Shown: one piece after another, positions 2,526 to 21,473 of the stretch
Layout: each line of letters begins with the position of its first letter
Numbering within the stretch: position 1 is the stretch's first letter
From: Candidatus Micrarchaeia archaeon
GTDB lineage: Archaea > Micrarchaeota > Micrarchaeia > Burarchaeales > JAVZCV01
Assembly: GCA_038874215.1 (NCBI GenBank)
Contig: JAVZCV010000014.1
Location: 1-28,917, forward strand
DNA length: 28,917 nt
Direction: 5' to 3'
Program-made: the position numbers and the translations under genes
The notes under the pieces: model-generated
What the model was told of the DNA's origin: nothing
The model's input: only the letters and a program-made list of their open reading frames with translations
The model's database searches: none

Positions 2526-2540
2526 ATGCGGCCGCCGGGA

Positions 2541-2582
2541 TTTCCAGAAGTTTTTTTGGCGCAGCTCTTCCAAAAAAGCTGC
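2541..2582 (-). other. tRNA-Gly intron at 59/60 (42 nt)
   Basis: Central helix UUCA/UGGA with AA|G and AA|U bulges; intron-side helix imperfect. Confidence 0.8.
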
Positions 2583-2588
2583 TTTGAA

Positions 2589-2639
2589 TTCCCTGACCCA
2601 TCCGGTAAGGTTTTTCTTTCTTTGAGAAAGAAAGGGCCA
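2589..2639 (-). other. tRNA-Gly intron at 53/54 (51 nt)
   Basis: Relaxed BHB: CCCG/AGGG helix, GG|U and AA|U bulges, intron helix GGCCC/GGGUC. Confidence 0.82.
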
Positions 2640-2678
2640 CCCGGGTTGTGGGCTTGGAAGGCCCAAGTCCTAACCAGG

Positions 2679-2732
2679 TTGTCCAAACTCTTCTTTCTTT
2701 TTATGAAACTTTTCTTTTGAAAGAAAAGTTCC
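2679..2732 (-). other. tRNA-Gly D-loop intron at 15/16 (54 nt)
   Basis: BHB-like: GUCU/GGAC helix, AG|G and AA|C bulges, intron helix GAACUUUUC/GAAGAGUUU. Confidence 0.85.
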
Positions 2733-2816
2733 CTAGACTACGGCCGCATCGGCATTATATTGGCGGGATAAAAATAAAAATGGATAGATGGGAAAATGGG
2801 GGGACCGAGATTTGAA

Positions 2817-2894
2817 TTCCCGTGCCCTTTCTGTTCTTTCGGAATCGCTTTTTATTTGGGGTTGAGCACTTTCTTTTCCGAAAAAGAAAGGGCT
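2817..2894 (-). other. tRNA-Pro intron at 53/54 (78 nt)
   Basis: CCCG/CGGG central helix, AG|A and AA|U bulges, GCCCUUUC/GAAAGGGC intron helix. Confidence 0.83.
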
Positions 2895-2909
2895 CTCGGG
2901 TCTCAGGGT

Positions 2910-2973
2910 TTTCCGCAGCCTTCTGCTTTCTTTTTACGATGCAGCGCTTTTTCTTAAAAAGAAAAAGGGCTGC
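2910..2973 (-). other. tRNA-Pro canonical intron at 37/38 (64 nt)
   Basis: BHB: UUUG/CGGA helix, GG|G and AA|A bulges, CAGCC/GGCUG intron helix. Confidence 0.87.
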
Positions 2974-3065
2974 CCCAAACCCCGAAGCATTGCCAGGCTA
3001 GCCCATCCCCCCATGAAGTTATGGATTAGGTAGGAAAGGCATTTAAGTATTCGGCATGTGCGCTG

Positions 3066-3485
3066 TCAGTTGTTCTCGTTCCTCTCCATCAACTCTACAA
3101 TATTTCCGTTTTTTAAGGAGATTGAAACCGTGAAAAAGCCTGCACGGGTGTATAATCTCTTCGCTGGATTCGCATGGGCTACGTTGAGCTTGATTTTTGT
3201 TTTCCCCATATTACGCATAAGCATTATGGCACTGTTGAGGAGCGCTGTCCCTATTCCGCGATGCGAGAAGCTTTTCTCAACGGCTATGCCTACTATTGCG
3301 CAGTCTGAAACATCAACGCGTACAAAACCGACTGTGCGCCTACCAACCTGCGCAATGAGAACTATACTGTTTGGGTTATAAAATTCTTTTACATCGGTGT
3401 TTTCTTTGCCGAACCTTTCTTTAACGATATGCGATATTTTCGGTATGTCTGAAAGCTTCGCATTCCGTATAACAAATTCTACCAT
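3066..3485 (-). CDS. GNAT family N-acetyltransferase (RimI-like)
   Basis: Motif A (IAVEKSFSHRGIGTALL) and motif B (NPAKRLYTRAGF); start placed at MVEFVIR because the longer ORF runs into 23S rRNA. Confidence 0.88.
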   Translation of the reverse strand: MVEFVIRNAKLSDIPKISHIVKERFGKENTDVKEFYNPNSIVLIAQVGRRTVGFVRVDVSDCAIVGIAVEKSFSHRGIGTALLNSAIMLMRNMGKTKIKLNVAHANPAKRLYTRAGFFTVSISLKNGNIVELMERNENN

Positions 3486-3695
3486 ATCATGTGAATTTGC
3501 ATAAGGAGAATAAAATGATTTCTGCGAATGAGAAAATAAGAATCGGATGAAGAGAGCAATGCATGAGGATGCAAGGGCTTTAGTAACGGCAGGCTCGCAG
3601 ATCGCGTAAGCTCTCTGCATACACCCCCGTCCTATCAATGCCGTCTGCTACGGCCGCCCATCGCCACCTCGTTTTGAGGATGGCTTCGTCCTTAG

Positions 3696-3739
3696 TTAAG
3701 CCTCCGATAACCATCCTACCAAAAACTGGTTATCGGAGT
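3696..3739 (-). other. 23S intron (~E. coli 2754/2755, 44 nt)
   Basis: Interrupts GAAAGCAU|CUAAG; strict BHB AAGC/GCUU with AU|A and AA|C bulges; 12-bp intron stem CUCCGAUAACCA. Confidence 0.9.
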
Positions 3740-3953
3740 ATGCTTTCAGGACTTATCCATAAGCGCGTAGCTGCCCGGCAGTGCCAAAGACAACCGGTAG
3801 ACCAGAGGCGCCGATCCCCAGTTCCTCTCGTACTTAGGGGACCTTCCTCTCAGGTGGCGAGCACTCCCAGTAGATACTACCGAACTGTCTCGCGACGTTC
3901 TGAACCCAGCTCATGTAGGTCTTTAATGGATGAACAACCCAACCATTGGCGGC

Positions 3954-3996
3954 TTACAGCCTCGCAAACCGTCTGCTGAAAAATGGTTTGCAAGGT
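3954..3996 (-). other. 23S intron (~E. coli 2533, H91 loop, 43 nt)
   Basis: GCAG/CUGU helix, GA|A and AA|G bulges, 11-bp intron stem CCUUGCAAACC/GGUUUGCGAGG. Confidence 0.88.
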
Positions 3997-4053
3997 TCCT
4001 GCACCGCCAGGATGACCTAAGCCGACAGCGATGTACCAAACCGCGGGGTCGAT

Positions 4054-4112
4054 TCGTACAAACTTTCTTTCCTTTCTTTTGATGAAACTTTTCTTTAGGA
4101 AAGAAAAGCTTT
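4054..4112 (-). other. 23S intron (~E. coli 2477/2478, H89, 59 nt)
   Basis: Strict BHB: GUAC/GUAC helix, CC|A and GA|A bulges, both flanking helices paired. Confidence 0.9.
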
Positions 4113-4609
4113 GGGTACTCTCGCCCGCGACGAGCCTGTTACCCCCGGGGTAGCTTTTCTGACAGCTTGGGCCCCCATTAAAAGGGACACCAAGGTTCGT
4201 TAGGCCCTGCTTTCGCACCTGCGTGCCCTGCTGTGCGGCACACAGTCAGTCCTGCATTTGTCCTTAACCCTTAACGGCGGATTTCTGACCCGCCTAAGCA
4301 GAACTTTGGGCGCCCTTGTTTCCCTATCGAGGGCGTACCGCCCCAGCCAAACTATCCACCTGCCGCTGTCCCCTTCCGGGTGAGAGGCACGGTCCTCGTT
4401 GAGTGGTGTTACACTTTCGCCTCCGCATCCCCCGAGAGGAATGCCTCTGCGGCTCCCACTTACGCTCCGCAACAAAAACCATGCCCCAACAACAGGCTAT
4501 AGTAAAGCTCCACGGGGTCTTCGTTTCCCACTGGGAGTCCTCCGCATATTCACGGAGAAGTGAGTTCACCAGGTCCCGGGTAGGGACAGTGGGAGAGTCG
4601 TTATGCCCT

Positions 4610-4648
4610 TTCCACCGGCATCAATATATAAAAATGGATTGATGCCGT
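4610..4648 (-). other. 23S intron (~E. coli 1969/1970, 39 nt)
   Basis: 10-bp hairpin CGGCAUCAAU/AUUGAUGCCG inserted in GCAUGA..GGCAUAACG; relaxed BHB with 3 of 4 central pairs; register uncertain. Confidence 0.78.
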
Positions 4649-4748
4649 TCATGCAAGCCGCCAATTAAGCGGCGAGGTACTACGCTACCTTAAGAGGGTC
4701 AGAGTTACCCCCGCTCTTTACCGGCGCTTTGCTCCGTTGGAACGGAGT

Positions 4749-4781
4749 TTCGCCGAACCATTCTATATAAAGAAAGGTTCT
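4749..4781 (-). other. 23S intron (~E. coli 1854, H68, 33 nt)
   Basis: CGUC/GGCG helix, AA|A bulges on both strands, GAACC/GGUUC intron helix. Confidence 0.85.
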
Positions 4782-5724
4782 TTGACGTACCGGCAGTGAG
4801 CAGGCATCGGCCGCTATACTAAGCCTTACGGCTTTGCAGCGACCTGTGTTTTTGGTAAACAGTCGCTCTCCCCTTGTCACTGCGACCTGCGATTCCACTT
4901 GCGCAGAAACGCAGGCATGGCTTCTCCCGAAGTTACGCCACTAATTTGCCGAATTCCCTTACCCGAGTTCTCCTGACACGCCTGAGCCTTTTCAGCCAGC
5001 AACACCTGTACTGGTTCTAGGTACGGTCATGCGGAATCGTATTGGCTCCCTTTTCACGGGCTCAAGGAATTGACCGAACTGGCTTGCGCCAGCCATTCCC
5101 AAGATTAGGCTGCTTCTCCTCATAACGAGTCTCCACAGCCTTGCCTTGGTTAGACAGCCGAAGCTGCTCGGCCTATCCCCAAGCGTCAGGAACCAATATT
5201 GCGTTGCCGCGTCTATCCGCATGGCACGGGAATTTTAACCCGTTTCCCTTTCGCCACCGAGTAATTGGCTGGTGGCTTAGGACCGGCTTACTCTTGGCTG
5301 ACGAACGTTGCCAAGAAAACCGTGTGCTTTCGGCGTCCAGGATTCTCGCCTGGATTTGCTGTTACTAACACCAGGATGTTCATTCCTAATCGGTCCATCG
5401 GACCTCACGGCCCGACTTCTACCCGATCAGGACGCCCCCCTACCAGCACTTTGCTATGCAAAGTGCTCCGAGGTATCGGCACCAGACTTAGCCCCGAGCA
5501 TCTTCGGAACCTGCAATCTCGGCTGGTCCGCTATTACGCGTTGTTTAAAGGATGGCTGCTTCTAAGCCTACCTCCCAGCTGTTTTAGATTGGAGATTCCT
5601 TGTGGATTCGCACTTAGTCTGGATTTAGGGGCCTTAACCCCGGTCTCGGTCGTTCCCGTTCAGGCATGCTAGCTTACCCAGCATGCCCAACTCCTGCCTT
5701 CTACGGCGACGATGGATTCGGAGT

Positions 5725-5759
5725 TTTGTCGACCTTTTCTTTTTAAAAGAAAAGGTTCT
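5725..5759 (-). other. 23S intron (~E. coli 910, H38, 35 nt)
   Basis: UGUC/GACA helix, AA|A bulges, ACCUUUUCUUUU/AAAAGAAAAGGU hairpin. Confidence 0.87.
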
Positions 5760-5921
5760 TTGACAAAGTGGTAGAGCCTTTCGGCTCCGTGCCACTTAAT
5801 CAGTGCTCTACCCCATCGTCTGCCTCTAGCAGGGCTATTCTGAGGAATACTTTGGGGGGAACCCGCTATCGCCGAGTTCGATAGGACTTTCACCCCTACA
5901 CGCAGGTCACCTAAGCAGATA

Positions 5922-5984
5922 TTCCAGACAGCGATGGCAATTTAGAAAAACAGCCATCGCCGCTTACTAGCACTAGATGCGGGC
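5922..5984 (-). other. 23S intron (~E. coli 745-750, H35 loop, 63 nt)
   Basis: CUAG/CUGG helix, UA|A and AA|U bulges, 11-bp intron stem GCGGCGAUGGC/GCCAUCGCUGU; exon is divergent so the boundary rests on the BHB register. Confidence 0.78.
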
Positions 5985-6595
5985 CTCCACCGTCTTGGAA
6001 GACGGCTTCGCCCTGCCCACGTGTAGCTCACATCGGCTTCGGGTCTCATGAGAGTGATTAACCGCACTTTCATACGGCGGGCCTCCCTTTCGGTGCGCCC
6101 TATCGCTTTCGCTACGCCTTTCAGCTCACCACTCCCATGAACTCCCTGGCTCTTGCTTCGAGAAGAACGATGCAACCCTGTTTGGCGTTGGCTCGCTCAT
6201 CGCATCTCTGCGAATTGCTTCGCCACGCTACATTCCTTTCGGGCAGCATCGACCTGTAGTCTCTCAGTTTCAGGCTCTTTTCACTCCCCTTCCGGGGTAC
6301 TTTTCAGCTTTTGCTCGCGCTACTAGTGCGCTATCGGTCTCGGGTTATATTTAGGGTTGGATGTTAATACACCCATATTCACGCCCCATACCCGAGGGGC
6401 GCTACTCACCGCTCATCCTTCCCCATGCCTACGCCTACGGGGCTATCACCCTCTATGGCAGAGCTTTCCAGCTCTCTTCGGCTCGGCAGAAGGGATAGTT
6501 GATGAGCACCACATCTCCCACACATTACTGTGCAGGATTCAGGTTGCCCTGTGCGGCTTTCAGTCGCCCTTACTAACCGCATCCCTTTTGGTTTC

Positions 6596-6637
6596 TTAGA
6601 ATTTTGCCAACCTCATTCAAAAACGGGTTGGCAAAAT
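6596..6637 (-). other. 23S intron (~E. coli 219/220, 42 nt)
   Basis: Interrupts conserved AGGAAAA|GAAA; GGAA/UUCU helix, AA|A and AA|G bulges, UUUUGCCAACC/GGUUGGCAAAA stem. Confidence 0.87.
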
Positions 6638-6939
6638 TTTTCCTGCGGGTACTAAGATGTTTCAATTCCCCGCGTAATTACCCATTACTGGGTTATGGGC
6701 AATCCTGGGTTCAAGGGCTGCCTGCGCCTACCCCAGGCTTATCGCAGCTTGCCACGGCCCACAACTACCCGAGCCTAGCCATCCCCTGAGAGACAGCAAC
6801 AGCATCCGTGAACATGCATCGCCTCTCTTCATCCTCATGACTCTCAAGCATGAGAGCTGCCTTTCGGCGCATTCCCAACAGCGTTGGGACATGCTACTCG
6901 TGAAATGAGTAGTATGAATGTGATATGGACTCGGCGAGA

Positions 6940-6991
6940 AGTTCAGAGGGCAACCCATCTTGAACACAGATGTTTATGGGGAAGCCCTTCT
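6940..6991 (-). other. tRNA-Ala intron at 59/60 (52 nt)
   Basis: Strict BHB: UUCA/UGAA helix, AA|A and CU|U bulges. Confidence 0.88.
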
Positions 6992-7013
6992 TTTGAACTC
7001 GCGGCCTCCTCCT

Positions 7014-7045
7014 TATTTGAAACTTTTCTTTTTAAGAAAAGTTCA
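7014..7045 (-). other. tRNA-Ala canonical intron at 37/38 (32 nt)
   Basis: Strict BHB: UUUG/CAAA helix, CG|U and UA|A bulges, GAACUUUUCUU/AAGAAAAGUUU stem. Confidence 0.9.
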
Positions 7046-7596
7046 CGCAAAGGAGGCGCTCTACCACTGAGCTACGAGCCCAACCTTTCAACTGTGTTTC
7101 AAAAGAAACACAGCACAACCCCAAGAACCGAATCCACGCTCTCGCGCCTTGCACGTAAACTAAAGGAGGTGATCTATCCGCAGGTTCCCCTACGGATACC
7201 TTGTTACGACTTAGCCCCCCTCATAAAGCTCTAGTTCGACGCTACCACGAGGATAACGCCTCACTAGAACCTTACTTGGGTGACTTGACGGGCGGTGTGT
7301 GCAAGGAGCGGGGACGTATTCACCGCGCGATGTTGACACGCGATTACTAGGGATTCCAGCTTCATGAGGGCGAGTTTCAGCCCTCAATCCGAACTCAGGC
7401 TAGGTTTGGGGATTAGCTTCTCCTCTCGGAGTCGCAACCCATTGTCCTAGCCATTGTAGGCCACGTGTAGCCCGGGAGATTCAGGGCATACTGACCTACC
7501 GTCGCCCTCTCCTTCCTCCTGCTTAACGCAGGCAGTCTCTACAGAGTGCCCGTTTCAAAAGAAACGGTAGCAACTGTAGACGAGGGTCTCGCTCGT

Positions 7597-8114
7597 TTCC
7601 GGGCCTGCGGGCATCAAACTTTCAAAAATTTAAGATGAGTTTTTACAAAACCAAGAAAATCTGATGAGATGTAAAGAGCACTGCCTATGCGCTTTGTCCT
7701 AAAATTGAGTCTTTCAAGCATGTGCTCGTCTGCTTCGTCGGCTCTTGCTAGGAAGGGCAAGCCTTTGCGGATACCACCACAACCATCAAAAAAGCCTGCG
7801 AGGTATTCTGCGCTCTTTTCGTTCCTTTCTCTGAAAATATTCAAGCGCTCATTGACAACCTTCTGAAAAAACTTTTTGTAAGCGGAGTGATAGAAGTATG
7901 CCTCGTTCTCTTTTATCGTTATCTTATCCCCACGCGTTAGCCCGTTTCTGATGCACTCTGAGACGAATATTCCAACTATTTTTTTGTTTCCTGTTATCCC
8001 TATTCCGTGCTCTCCCCCTCTCGCCTTCCATAGGCCAACTACATATGCGATATTTGGAGTTAGTTTCAGCTTCATTCAATCACTCTTCAATCAACATGAG
8101 GCTGCCCACAGGCA
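7597..8114 (-). mobile_element. 16S rRNA BHB intron (~E. coli 1101/1102, 518 nt) carrying a homing-endonuclease ORF
   Basis: Removal restores AAGUCCGGUA|ACGAGCG; CCGG/CCGG helix, UA|U and AA|A bulges, 11-bp stem GCCUGUGGGCA/UGCCCGCAGGC. Confidence 0.93.
7614..8075 (-). CDS. intron-encoded LAGLIDADG-family protein
   Basis: Two LAGLIDADG-like helices, IAYVVGLWKARGG (degenerate) and EYLAGFFDGCGGI; sense to the rRNA and inside the intron loop. Confidence 0.85.
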   Translation of the reverse strand: MKLKLTPNIAYVVGLWKARGGEHGIGITGNKKIVGIFVSECIRNGLTRGDKITIKENEAYFYHSAYKKFFQKVVNERLNIFRERNEKSAEYLAGFFDGCGGIRKGLPFLARADEADEHMLERLNFRTKRIGSALYISSDFLGFVKTHLKFLKV

Positions 8115-8262
8115 TACCGGACTTAACCGGACAGCTCACACCACGAGCTGACGATGGCCATGCACCACCTCTCGGCTCGTCTGGCAAGATCTTCAGTCTG
8201 GCCTTCATACTGCCGTCTCTCCCGGTAATATTCCCGGCGTTGAATCCAATTGAACCGCAGCC

Positions 8263-8305
<43 letters not shown>

Positions 8306-8518
8306 ACCTTGCGGCCGTACTCCCCAGGCGGCAGACTTAACACCTACGCTACGGCACTGCAACAGCTCTAAGCTGTTGCAACACCACAGTCTGCATAATT
8401 TACTGCTAGGGCTACTCGGGTATCTAATCCGATTCGTTCTCCTAGCCTTCGTCCCTCACCGTCAGACGTGTTTTGGCCAAGCGCCTTCGCCACCGGGAGT
8501 CCTCACAGGATTACAGGA

Positions 8519-8575
8519 TTGTAAGACCCTTCTTTGGTGAAGCTTTCTTTGATTGCTTAATAGGAAGAAAGGTTC
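8519..8575 (-). other. 16S intron (~E. coli 694-697, h23 loop, 57 nt)
   Basis: Interrupts GGGGUAAAA|UCC; GUAA/UUAC helix, AA|G and AA|U bulges. Confidence 0.85.
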
Positions 8576-8861
8576 TTTTACCCCTACCCTGTGAGTACTC
8601 TTGGCCTCCCCCACTCTCAAGCTCCGCAGTATTTCCTGCGCGCCCCCGGGTTAAGCTCGGGGATTTCACAAGAAACTTACAGAGCCGGCTACGGACTCTT
8701 TAGGCCCAATATTCGTGGGCACCACTTGGGCTGCCAGTGTTACCGCGGCGGCTGGCACTGGTCTTACCCAGCCCTTATTCCCCAAGCGGGTTAGACTTGG
8801 GAAAAGGTGCTCCCGTAGAGCACCACTCAGAGTCCCCCCGTCACGCTTTCGCGCATTGCGG

Positions 8862-8892
<31 letters not shown>

Positions 8893-8900
8893 AGGGCCCT

Positions 8901-8945
8901 TGGACACGGTTCTGACCACCCTACTAAAACTCGTCAGAGCCATGT
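8901..8945 (-). other. 16S insertion or intron (~E. coli 329/330, 45 nt)
   Basis: Interrupts CUGAGACA|AGGGCCC; hairpin CAUGGCUCUGAC/GUCAGAACCGUG; central helix only about 2 bp. Confidence 0.75.
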
Positions 8946-9459
8946 TGTCTCAGTGCCCTTCTGGGGGCTCCAACTCCCATTGCCCCCACTGATTATCGGC
9001 TTGGTGGGCCGTTACCCCACCAACAACCTAATCAGCCGCAGTCCTTTCCTCAGGCGGGCTGGCTGCATTTCGCCAGTCCTTTTAGACCATCAAGCATTCC
9101 AGCATAGATGGCCTATCGGGTATTAGCCTCAGTTTCCCGAGGTTATCCCCGTCCTGAGGGTAAGTTGACTACGTGCTACTCAGCCGTTCGCCGCCCTCGG
9201 AAGCCCGAGAGCAGACTTGCATGGCTTAGTCGGACTCTGATAGCAGTGCCCTCCAGCAGGATCAACTGGAGTTTTCACGAATAGAGTACGCCACAAAGCG
9301 GATCAGCAGTGGAACACACTTGTTTCGTGTCGGTTCTTGAGGTCTCAGTCTAACCCAAGAGTCTTGGGTTACCATCGGTCATGTAGGCTGTAGTGGATAG
9401 AATGTTCATTGCACGAAAAAAATCGCGCTCTATTCGGCCAGGACTACAGCCGAATCGGG

Positions 9460-21272: not shown

Positions 21273-21297
21273 AAAAAATGCCAAGGGCGGGATTTGA

Positions 21298-21329
21298 TTG
21301 CGGGACCATTCGGCTTTTCCGAACGACCT
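21298..21329 (-). other. tRNA-Met intron at 54/55 (32 nt)
   Basis: GCGG/CCGC helix, GU|A and AA|U bulges, GGUCGUUCGG/CCGAAUGGUC stem. Confidence 0.88.
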
Positions 21330-21346
21330 ACCCGCGACATCCAGAT

Positions 21347-21398
21347 ATCCCGCGAGCGCTTTTGATTTCATTGCACATGGCTCATAACTCATACGCCG
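21347..21398 (-). other. tRNA-Met intron at 37/38 (52 nt, possibly two stacked introns)
   Basis: Insertion at the canonical site containing tandem UAUGAG copies complementary to the anticodon loop. Confidence 0.85.
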
Positions 21399-21473
21399 TA
21401 TGAGTCTGGCGCTCTAACCAGGCTGAGCTACCTTGGCATAAAATTTTTCCAGGAGATATTTTTATACTCTACC

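Follow-up and report, generated by a model that had tools for sequence, protein, structure and literature searches.

Small introns of one sequence family in tRNA genes and the 23S rRNA gene of a micrarchaeal genome

How does nearly the same small intron come to interrupt genes for two different classes of RNA? The question is raised by contig JAVZCV010000014.1 (assembly GCA_038874215.1, Candidatus Micrarchaeia archaeon), whose 28,917 nucleotides (nt) were analysed in full and are called the window below. The window is contig C14 of a genome of 1,134,811 bases in 38 contigs, which is 91% complete. It holds a 23S rRNA gene (Rfam LSU_rRNA_archaea, 2397.9 bits), a 16S rRNA gene (7164-9272, minus strand) and tRNA genes, all with short insertions (Table 1). 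The rRNA operon and the tRNA genes occupy the minus strand, so that the plus-strand motif discussed here appears in the RNA as its reverse complement. An earlier reading of the letters without database searches, the sequence-only reading, had noticed this motif in three introns at unrelated host sites and proposed that introns move between RNA classes, either by reverse splicing of excised circles or in the manner of a miniature inverted-repeat transposable element (MITE). The movement itself stands as the best reading and is, on balance, somewhat probable: one family occupies unrelated sites in two RNA classes, and the nearest kin of the 23S intron are tRNA introns of its own genome. Of the two proposed routes, the first is very unlikely and the second unlikely.

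The motif is a 14-mer found on the plus strand at 2704-2717, 4083-4096 and 7018-7031. The matches are exact at all three positions, and each copy is directly followed by AAGAAAAG(T/C)T, as had been reported. With up to two mismatches allowed, six sites occur in the window against 0.62 expected, a number reached by none of 100 shuffles. The genome-wide search that the sequence-only reading had called for returns four exact copies in 1,134,811 bases, every one inside an intron; the fourth, at C2:75608, also belongs to a tRNA D-loop intron. The three hosts in the window, all on the minus strand, are tRNA-Gly(UCC) at position 15/16, the 23S rRNA at E. coli position 2477/2478 in the loop of helix 89 (H89), and tRNA-Ala(UGC) at 37/38. 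The 23S insertion falls between nt 2476 and 2477 of the 2903-nt E. coli 23S record, which we take to be the conventional 2477/2478 on the assumption that the peptidyl-transferase adenine is A2451; the helix name H89 is likewise presumed. The Gly 15/16 intron (54 nt) and the 23S intron (59 nt) had been said to align over most of their length, and 45 of 48 positions do so, with a score matched by 0 of 2000 dinucleotide shuffles.

These introns are homologous members of a larger family within the genome. A profile search with nhmmer finds five long copies (E 1.5e-15 to 6.4e-10): the 15/16 introns of tRNA-Gly(UCC) (E 1e-12), tRNA-Glu(UUC) on C2 and tRNA-Gly(GCC) on C4, the 37/38 intron of tRNA-Leu(CAA) on C1, and the 23S intron (E 1.2e-14). 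The next match is the Ala intron, at E 0.0026. Identity between any two of the long copies is 90-95% across the 39-53 nt that align (ten pairs), and for no pair does any of 2000 dinucleotide shuffles attain the local score; the 23S and Glu(UUC) introns share 50 of 53 positions. Every pair thereby exceeds the 70% identity among distinct host genes of one genome that serves to recognise a transposed intron family of the Thermoproteales type. The identity extends to an unpaired linker (GUUU-C/A-AUCAAAAG) that no helix requires. When the 23S gene is compared by BLAST with 31 genomes, its intron part has four matches in its own genome (E 2.8e-10 to 9.4e-7), all of them tRNA introns, and the best match elsewhere is in G009 (E 5.9e-6). 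Weaker members were sought with R1, a model of primary sequence built from 13 sequences; on the MAFFT alignment, whose arms lay out of register, RNAalifold had detected no pairs. R1 adds a tRNA-Trp intron and 23S mini-intron no. 3 to the members in RNA genes. The latter and the Ala intron (R1 E 8.2e-5) are short, hairpin-only forms; the truncation of the Ala copy had escaped the sequence-only reading.

Each of the three host introns in the window has the borders of an archaeal splicing substrate. The exon-pairing tetramers named by the sequence-only reading fit their hosts, GGAC pairing with GUCU of the D stem, GUAC with GUAC of the 23S rRNA, and CAAA with UUUG at positions 32-35 of the anticodon loop. 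Each tetramer helix is flanked by bulges of 3 nt, which gives a strict 3-4-3 bulge-helix-bulge (BHB) in all three cases. With the bulges in brackets and the borders as slashes, the Gly 15/16 intron reads GUCU (AG/G), a 13-bp inner helix and GGAC (AA/C); the 23S intron reads GUAC (CC/A), an 8-bp inner helix, GUAC (GA/A) and a 2-bp outer helix; and the Ala intron reads UUUG (CG/U), an 11-bp inner helix, CAAA (UA/A) and a 5-bp outer helix. The same BHB appears when the 23S and Gly precursors are folded at minimum free energy. Strict BHBs lie at the alignment-derived borders of the 23S H89 intron, the Ala intron, the three 15/16 introns and six of the eight 23S mini-introns; none was found for the Leu 37/38 intron, 23S no. 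3, 23S no. 5 or two small 16S introns.

With the three introns removed in silico, the tRNAs become normal and the 23S sequence agrees exactly with that of relatives without the intron. The spliced Gly D-loop is identical to the uninterrupted tRNA-Gly D-loops of G017 (C59) and G018 (C40), and the 23S exon junction is that of the intron-less G004 and G003. Contigs of other sequencing runs skip exactly 59 nt at the H89 intron; these contigs come mostly from other organisms, and their joints are used solely as border markers. Among sequencing runs, one probable source run of DNA and RNA runs with small shares were identified, and no RNA run of this organism. The genome also encodes the expected enzymes. 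The splicing endonuclease EndA (375 residues, gene on C2, PF01974 match) has N-terminal and catalytic EndA domains and matches PDB 4fz2 across its full length (E 3.3e-137), from which it appears to be a three-unit epsilon2 enzyme of the broad-specificity type found in ARMAN-2. The ligase RtcB is present as well (E 4.3e-177). EndA should thus be able to excise the BHB introns, and RtcB to join the exons. No trace of a group I or II ribozyme core emerged: no Rfam family other than rRNA and tRNA lies above threshold in the window, and the introns measure 32-59 nt. It is extremely improbable that the insertions are retained, as expansion segments of mature RNAs or as sites of rRNA fragmentation. 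Excision has so far been predicted, which leaves room for such retention, but the BHB cut sites of every tested copy restore the conserved sequence to the base and a broad-specificity EndA is encoded. An insert of 54 nt in the D-loop, or of 59 nt in H89 by the peptidyl-transferase centre, would be expected to disrupt function.

The copies share a unit some 40 nt long, called the module here. Read along the RNA, a pyrimidine arm (CUUUUCUUU) comes first; a loop of 2-5 nt leads to the purine arm complementary to it (AAAGAAAAG), and behind a turn (GUUU-C/A-AUC) stands a tail of purines (AAAAGAAAG). This tail mirrors the purine arm and does not repeat it directly, so that the shared unit is a hairpin plus a mirror-image tail, a point missed by the sequence-only reading. 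Among 37 hairpins with asymmetric arms from this genome and its relatives, the mirror match is better in 22 and the direct match in 4, with 11 ties. Within this genome the signal is weak (18 hairpins scored: 5 wins, 2 losses, 8 ties and 3 with symmetric arms). Variant arms of other genomes have perfectly mirrored tails, from 8/8 up to 13/13. In a small viral control, the mirror pattern occurs in 11 stretches and the direct-tail control in 5, all 5 at the same loci. Around the module lie ends that are specific to each host: a closing strand pairs with the pyrimidine arm, and the tetramer pairs with the last exon bases to complete the BHB. Since the extra purine strand of the long 15/16 and 23S copies can pair with the pyrimidine arm, this arm has two alternative pairings. 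The layout corresponds to a class II intrastrand-triplex motif, and a triplex may form; the short Ala intron and 23S no. 3 lack this layout. In many relatives (G011, G015, G021, G023), the turn reads CCUUGG or CG-loop-CGG and makes a tiny hairpin of its own.

Related introns occur throughout the order. At E ≤0.01, R1 has matches in tRNA introns of 18 of 29 genomes, and 23 matches in relatives were read by eye. Nineteen lie in tRNA genes, on the sense strand, at the D-loop, 37/38 or the T-loop; two are hairpin-only with ambiguous context, one is probably a chance match, and one (G009:C43) lies in a hairpin-rich spacer behind a tRNA. In relatives, pattern matches with two mismatches are about as frequent as with the reversed pattern used as a control. 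The 37/38 introns of tRNA-Gly(CCC) in G009, G013 and G012 keep the core, and their stem extension and turn vary. Over about 40 nt the Leu copy of the present genome, as read by eye, hardly differs from the Gly(CCC) copy of G009, which belongs to another family. The 15/16 introns sit in three tRNAs with a common D-arm sequence. The tRNA-Gly genes of G017 and G018 have no intron there, and since their uninterrupted D-loops equal the predicted spliced product, the 15/16 introns look like gains in the present lineage.

At 2477/2478 of the 23S rRNA, nine of 15 assessable relatives have no intron, and six have introns of other interior. In G001 and G009 the intron is about 53 nt long, with similar ends (AAA... 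...GUUGUACGU) and another interior; in G006, G021, G012 and G016 it is small (33 nt in G006) and has a G/C hairpin. Twelve metagenome contigs carry introns of 42-49 nt at this site, none with the module, and 11 of them form one family ending in GUAC plus two bases. The module is therefore found at 2477/2478 in this genome only and in none of the 18 other occupied instances. The tetramer that forms the BHB is kept, and the interior varies by lineage; this is an old or recurrent intron site. A separate observation concerns its neighbourhood: L002, L006, L008, L009, L014 and L022, the 23S genes of G006, G021, G008, G012, G002 and G016, carry large insertions, of about 190-250 nt, which follow GAGAG (about 2472/2473), a few bases before the mini-intron site.

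Could such a family exist without any copying? Introns that are old at each site might have converged on the triplex-type module, or kept it, through a function in RNA or DNA. The age of the 23S site agrees with this, as do the core of the three Gly(CCC) introns with its co-varying stem extension and turn, the mirror relation of variant arms, and the presence of all 26 specified bases in numerous lineages of bacteria and archaea (see below). Yet the 90-95% identity takes in the unpaired linker, bases next to the loop and the closing strand, all of them free of any structural rule; the nearest kin of the 23S copy are in its own genome; the tRNA-Gly genes of G017 and G018 lack 15/16 introns; and the module is absent from the other occupied 23S sites. 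Persistence without copying is thus quite unlikely. Because the family spans two RNA classes, the nearest kin lie in the same genome, and the 23S site elsewhere has other introns or none, copying across classes is the simplest reading.

What was copied, and into what kind of place, can be judged from the context of the matches. The sequence-only reading had suggested testing for enrichment in RNA genes. The 15 R1 matches in this genome represent 10 distinct loci, of which eight lie in tRNA or rRNA genes, two in stretches without an open reading frame (ORF) and none in coding sequence; long open frames (≥120 codons) cover about 94% of the genome. Four further hairpins were rejected, C19:7357 as a chance palindrome in frame within a long ORF, and C24:3898, C2:60174 and C12:28512 because they look coding by eye. 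The two ORF-free loci deserve a remark of their own. C38:170-360 and C1:23070-23230 show motifs like C, D', C' and D boxes, with the module filling the spacer between D' and C', and may be genes for C/D box small RNAs that carry the module; no BHB that would cleanly excise it was found at either (C38:244-283, C1:23116-23158).

A miniature DNA element, similar to MITEs, to repetitive extragenic palindromes (REP) or to Rickettsia palindromic elements (RPE), might insert anywhere, survive in neutral places only and have entered existing introns that are themselves immobile. A common interior with differing, host-specific ends would follow from this, and the introns of G001 and G009, with similar ends and another interior at the same 23S site, would agree with it. 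The module also occurs outside introns, namely behind tRNA-like 3' ends in other archaea, on bacterial contigs, in an intergenic-looking Stenotrophomonas stretch and in the G009:C43 spacer. However, an element of this kind does not predict that 0 of 10 loci here are in coding sequence and 8 of 10 in RNA genes, nor that 19 of the 23 inspected matches in relatives lie in tRNA genes, all in sense. The 15/16 site of tRNA-Gly in G017 and G018 holds no intron, so that a whole intron is new there. Neither a Y1_Tnp nor a TnpB zinc-ribbon match was found in the 91% complete genome, and there is no target duplication. Such an element is accordingly an unlikely explanation.

The exact pattern of arms plus tail, with its 26 specified bases, reaches far beyond the order. 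At least 120 stretches in 185,579 species genomes contain it. Among the 80 matches listed, 11 have archaeal titles (Pace-, Micr-, Aenigmat- and Nanoarchaeia, Methanophagaceae and unnamed archaea), and the rest are bacterial. By eye, the archaeal copies among the matches listed include a 15/16 D-loop intron in an Aenigmatarchaeota contig, and some stand right after tRNA-like 3' ends. At 15 bacterial and archaeal loci the module is covered by no Rfam family. Contigs titled Cupriavidus (L137, L134) and Stenotrophomonas (L103, L123) carry several copies of the A/T-rich module. The three Cupriavidus copies have flanks that are identical or one base apart over 25 nt on each side, so that the module there is part of a longer repeat. 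One may imagine that the core is no passive filler of introns but a self-propagating triplex-type element present in both domains, an A/T-rich counterpart of the bacterial PIT and TM motifs. Its non-B structure would then cause it to be copied into RNA genes under heavy transcription and so seed new BHB introns in tRNA and rRNA. This idea is rather doubtful; if true, it would name a concrete source for repeated intron gains.

The reading adopted here is that these are homologous BHB introns and that either the module or the intron as a whole passed from one RNA gene to another by copying of DNA, the copies being kept where a BHB forms; in this full form it leans only slightly towards the probable. 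The copying would have run, probably, through host recombination or template switching, with no enzyme encoded by the element. The intron may have spread among tRNA genes of the same D-arm (Gly-UCC, Gly-GCC and Glu-UUC), entered the anticodon-loop introns of Leu, Ala and Trp, and reached the 23S H89 loop, where a BHB intron was present before or is readily accepted. The exon tetramers of the two sites, GUAC in the 23S rRNA and GUCU in the D stem, are so similar that a D-loop copy arriving in the 23S gene would form three of the four central pairs and would need just one G-to-U change (GGAC to GUAC) for the full helix. Copies would persist wherever a broad-specificity endonuclease of the ARMAN-2 type can cut. 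The direction and the time of the copying, as well as its DNA-level route, we infer.

An RNA-level route was also considered, in which an intron circularised by RtcB reverse-splices at a site that its tetramer can pair with, and then returns to the gene by reverse transcription and recombination. The tetramers of the D-loop and 23S copies differ by exactly the compensating base, every copy is in sense orientation, and EndA and RtcB are encoded, all of which would suit this route. It requires reverse transcription, and no RVT_1 match was found in the 91% complete genome. Moreover, the module also occurs behind tRNA 3' ends and in bacteria, which are not known to have a BHB splicing system, and no precedent is known for the reverse reaction of EndA and RtcB. 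This route is very unlikely.

Several observations weigh against the copying of BHB introns at the DNA level. For the Leu intron and several rRNA introns the BHB must be relaxed to fit, and excision in vivo is a prediction. There is no target-site duplication at the five long copies, and no mobility enzyme was matched in the 91% complete genome. All intron copies that were read are in sense orientation, a uniformity that random DNA insertion would not predict. The mirror test carries some bias, since the tail was present in the sequences from which R1 was built, and its informative part is the variant arms. The core is conserved in apparently orthologous Gly(CCC) introns of three families and occurs in bacteria, and selection on the module may explain part of the similarity. 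Finally, the relatives compared all belong to other families, so that the gains carry neither date nor polarity.

The coordinates of the interrupted genes are collected in Table 1. Introns hide most tRNA genes of this genome from the usual programs, as is evident from the 16 tRNAs called by ARAGORN in the whole genome and the 15 found by Rfam above threshold. On the unspliced window ARAGORN calls no tRNA, and at 20 loci Rfam in E-value mode did not recover multi-intron tRNAs. The three tRNAs (Gly, Pro and Ala) in the table were rebuilt by hand and then validated with ARAGORN after in-silico splicing; Rfam covers only 6994-7081 of the tRNA-Ala gene.

Table 1. Interrupted RNA genes of the window and their introns (positions refer to the window).
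Feature	Position	Strand	Evidence
tRNA-Gly(UCC) gene, three introns	2527..2747	-	ARAGORN tRNA-Gly(tcc), 74-nt cloverleaf after removing 2679-2732, 2589-2639, 2541-2582
Gly intron 15/16 (D-loop), 54 nt, long form with the 14-mer	2679..2732	-	strict BHB
Gly intron 53/54 (T-arm), 51 nt, pyrimidine/purine hairpin without mirror tail (5/9)	2589..2639	-	ARAGORN-validated splice
Gly intron 59/60 (T-loop), 42 nt	2541..2582	-	central helix UUCA-UGGA, by reading
tRNA-Pro(UGG) gene, two introns	2797..3011	-	ARAGORN tRNA-Pro(tgg) after in-silico splicing
Pro intron 37/38, 64 nt, hairpin and tail (mirror 8/9)	2910..2973	-	
Pro intron 53/54, 78 nt	2817..2894	-	
23S rRNA gene, eight mini-introns	3563..6811	-	insertions relative to four intron-less relatives
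23S mini-intron no. 1, 42 nt	6596..6637	-	strict BHB, 11-bp inner helix
23S mini-intron no. 2, 43 nt	5922..5964	-	strict BHB
23S mini-intron no. 3, 35 nt, hairpin-only family relative	5727..5761	-	insertion; R1 E 4.3e-4
23S mini-intron no. 4, 33 nt	4749..4781	-	strict BHB: CGUC (AA/A) ... GGCG (AA/A)
23S mini-intron no. 5, 39 nt, approximate borders	4611..4649	-	contigs of other runs skip 39 nt; no strict BHB
23S H89 intron (2477/2478), 59 nt, long form with the 14-mer	4054..4112	-	strict BHB
23S mini-intron no. 7, 43 nt	3954..3996	-	strict BHB; contigs of other runs skip 43 nt
23S mini-intron no. 8, 44 nt	3696..3739	-	strict BHB, 12-bp inner helix
tRNA-Ala(UGC) gene, two introns, located in the 16S-23S spacer	6926..7081	-	ARAGORN 72-nt tRNA-Ala(tgc) after removing 7014-7045, 6940-6991
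Ala intron 37/38, 32 nt, short hairpin-only member with the 14-mer, no mirror tail (5/8)	7014..7045	-	strict BHB
Ala intron 59/60 (T-loop), 52 nt, unrelated sequence	6940..6991	-	in-silico splicing
16S mini-intron, about 57 nt, with the same kind of start as 23S no. 3 and no. 4	8519..8575	-	contigs of other runs skip 57 nt

The 23S mini-introns span 33-59 nt, and most of their 3' bulges read AA/N. For no. 3, a BHB can be drawn by eye only with a bulged inner helix; the same hairpin occurs at the same 23S site in G009. Although they interrupt different sites, no. 3 and no. 4 have a common exon context (GUCAA/../ACUCCG) and the same first 15 or so intron bases, which looks like a second intron family at look-alike target sites. 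The 16S mini-intron has a weak nhmmer match (E 2.5) and no strict BHB. Another intron of the 16S gene (7603-8113, minus strand) is about 510 nt long and holds an ORF of 153 amino acids (7617-8075) without a Pfam match, which may be a diverged homing endonuclease or something else. Rfam calls a tRNA of 159 nt at 21279-21437 (minus strand), which must hold introns. The 53/54 and 59/60 introns of tRNA-Gly(UCC) resemble, at their ends (...GGGAA/UUCAAA/GCAG...), those of a tRNA at C1:68850-69110, by eye a tRNA-Glu, and this suggests a further shared intron pair.

The case bears on how archaeal introns arise. It provides a sharply defined module with structural covariation and a 23S site whose interior differs between lineages; the sequence of the module can be tracked in population data and its structure tested at the bench. 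There is a practical side as well: gene finders miss tRNAs hidden by introns and report no more than 16 to 19 tRNAs in this genome, and at least eight rRNA mini-introns would distort alignments.

Short palindromic units dispersed in many copies are known from several families, among them REP and REPIN sequences with their RAYT transposases, RPEs and MITEs. The present family differs from them in having no terminal inverted repeats around the body, no target duplication and no Y1 match, and in this genome its copies keep to RNA genes and two ORF-free loci. Another known kind is the archaeal rRNA intron that carries a homing endonuclease gene. Such introns occur in the 23S genes of Desulfurococcus and Pyrobaculum. 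BHB introns with such genes also interrupt the 16S rRNA of Thermoproteales, according to the accessible part of PMC4496867. Like them, the introns described here are bounded by BHBs in 16S and 23S genes, and the window's 16S intron of about 510 nt has an ORF; unlike them, the family itself is 32-59 nt long, lacks ORFs and has its sequence in common with tRNA introns.

The module resembles the prokaryotic triplex motifs PIT, BoxC and TM_ECO. By the available text of Holder et al. 2015 (PMC4666352), such motifs abound in prokaryotes, lie between genes, come with no mobility genes and are linked to local variability of the genome. As far as that text goes, these class II motifs have the same order of parts, conserved stems, variable loops, a dispersed distribution and no associated mobility gene. 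TM_ECO, by the same description, is G/C-rich, always intergenic and without strand bias, whereas the module is A/U-rich, lies in BHB introns of RNA genes and occurs in sense only. The word 'tRNA' has 0 occurrences in PMC4666352.

The splicing endonuclease is of the type of Candidatus Micrarchaeum acidiphilum ARMAN-2, whose three-unit epsilon2 EndA cuts strict and relaxed BHBs (PMC3239211, PMC3488258, available portions). The tRNAs of that organism are heavily interrupted, including positions 53/54 and 59/60, in the account given by the consulted portion of PMC3239211. Both genomes, on these descriptions, have this EndA (the full-length 4fz2 match), T-arm introns at 53/54 and 59/60 and several introns per tRNA; the tRNA-Pro D-arm in the window is, by eye, likewise unusually weak. 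Unlike ARMAN-2 as described in that portion of PMC3239211, the present genome has rRNA introns, shared intron sequence and a 15/16 intron.

The nearest precedent for copying comes from Thermoproteales, in which introns were copied between tRNA genes (Fujishima et al. 2010, as summarised in the accessible text of PMC4090602, PMC3239211 and bioRxiv 10.64898/2026.10.13.758758). The mechanism of archaeal intron transposition is called unknown in the available part of a 2014 review (PMC4090602), and the arrival route remains open in that of the 2026 preprint on Asgard tRNA introns. A search of the open literature found no paper reporting one family of tRNA and rRNA introns, or triplex-type motifs tied to archaeal introns. 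The two cases have in common a host with a broad-specificity endonuclease and a mechanism of transposition that is open, with the DNA level suggested in the accessible text of the review. They differ in the host, which is a crenarchaeon with an (alpha-beta)2 enzyme there and a Micrarchaeota-like member of DPANN with an epsilon2 enzyme here. In contrast to the Thermoproteales families, the present one also occupies a 23S site and has weaker relatives in 23S and 16S rRNA, and its shared part is a defined hairpin with a mirror tail that is conserved across an order. It thus offers a clean example, outside Thermoproteales, of one intron family that spans several tRNAs and a ribosomal RNA gene.

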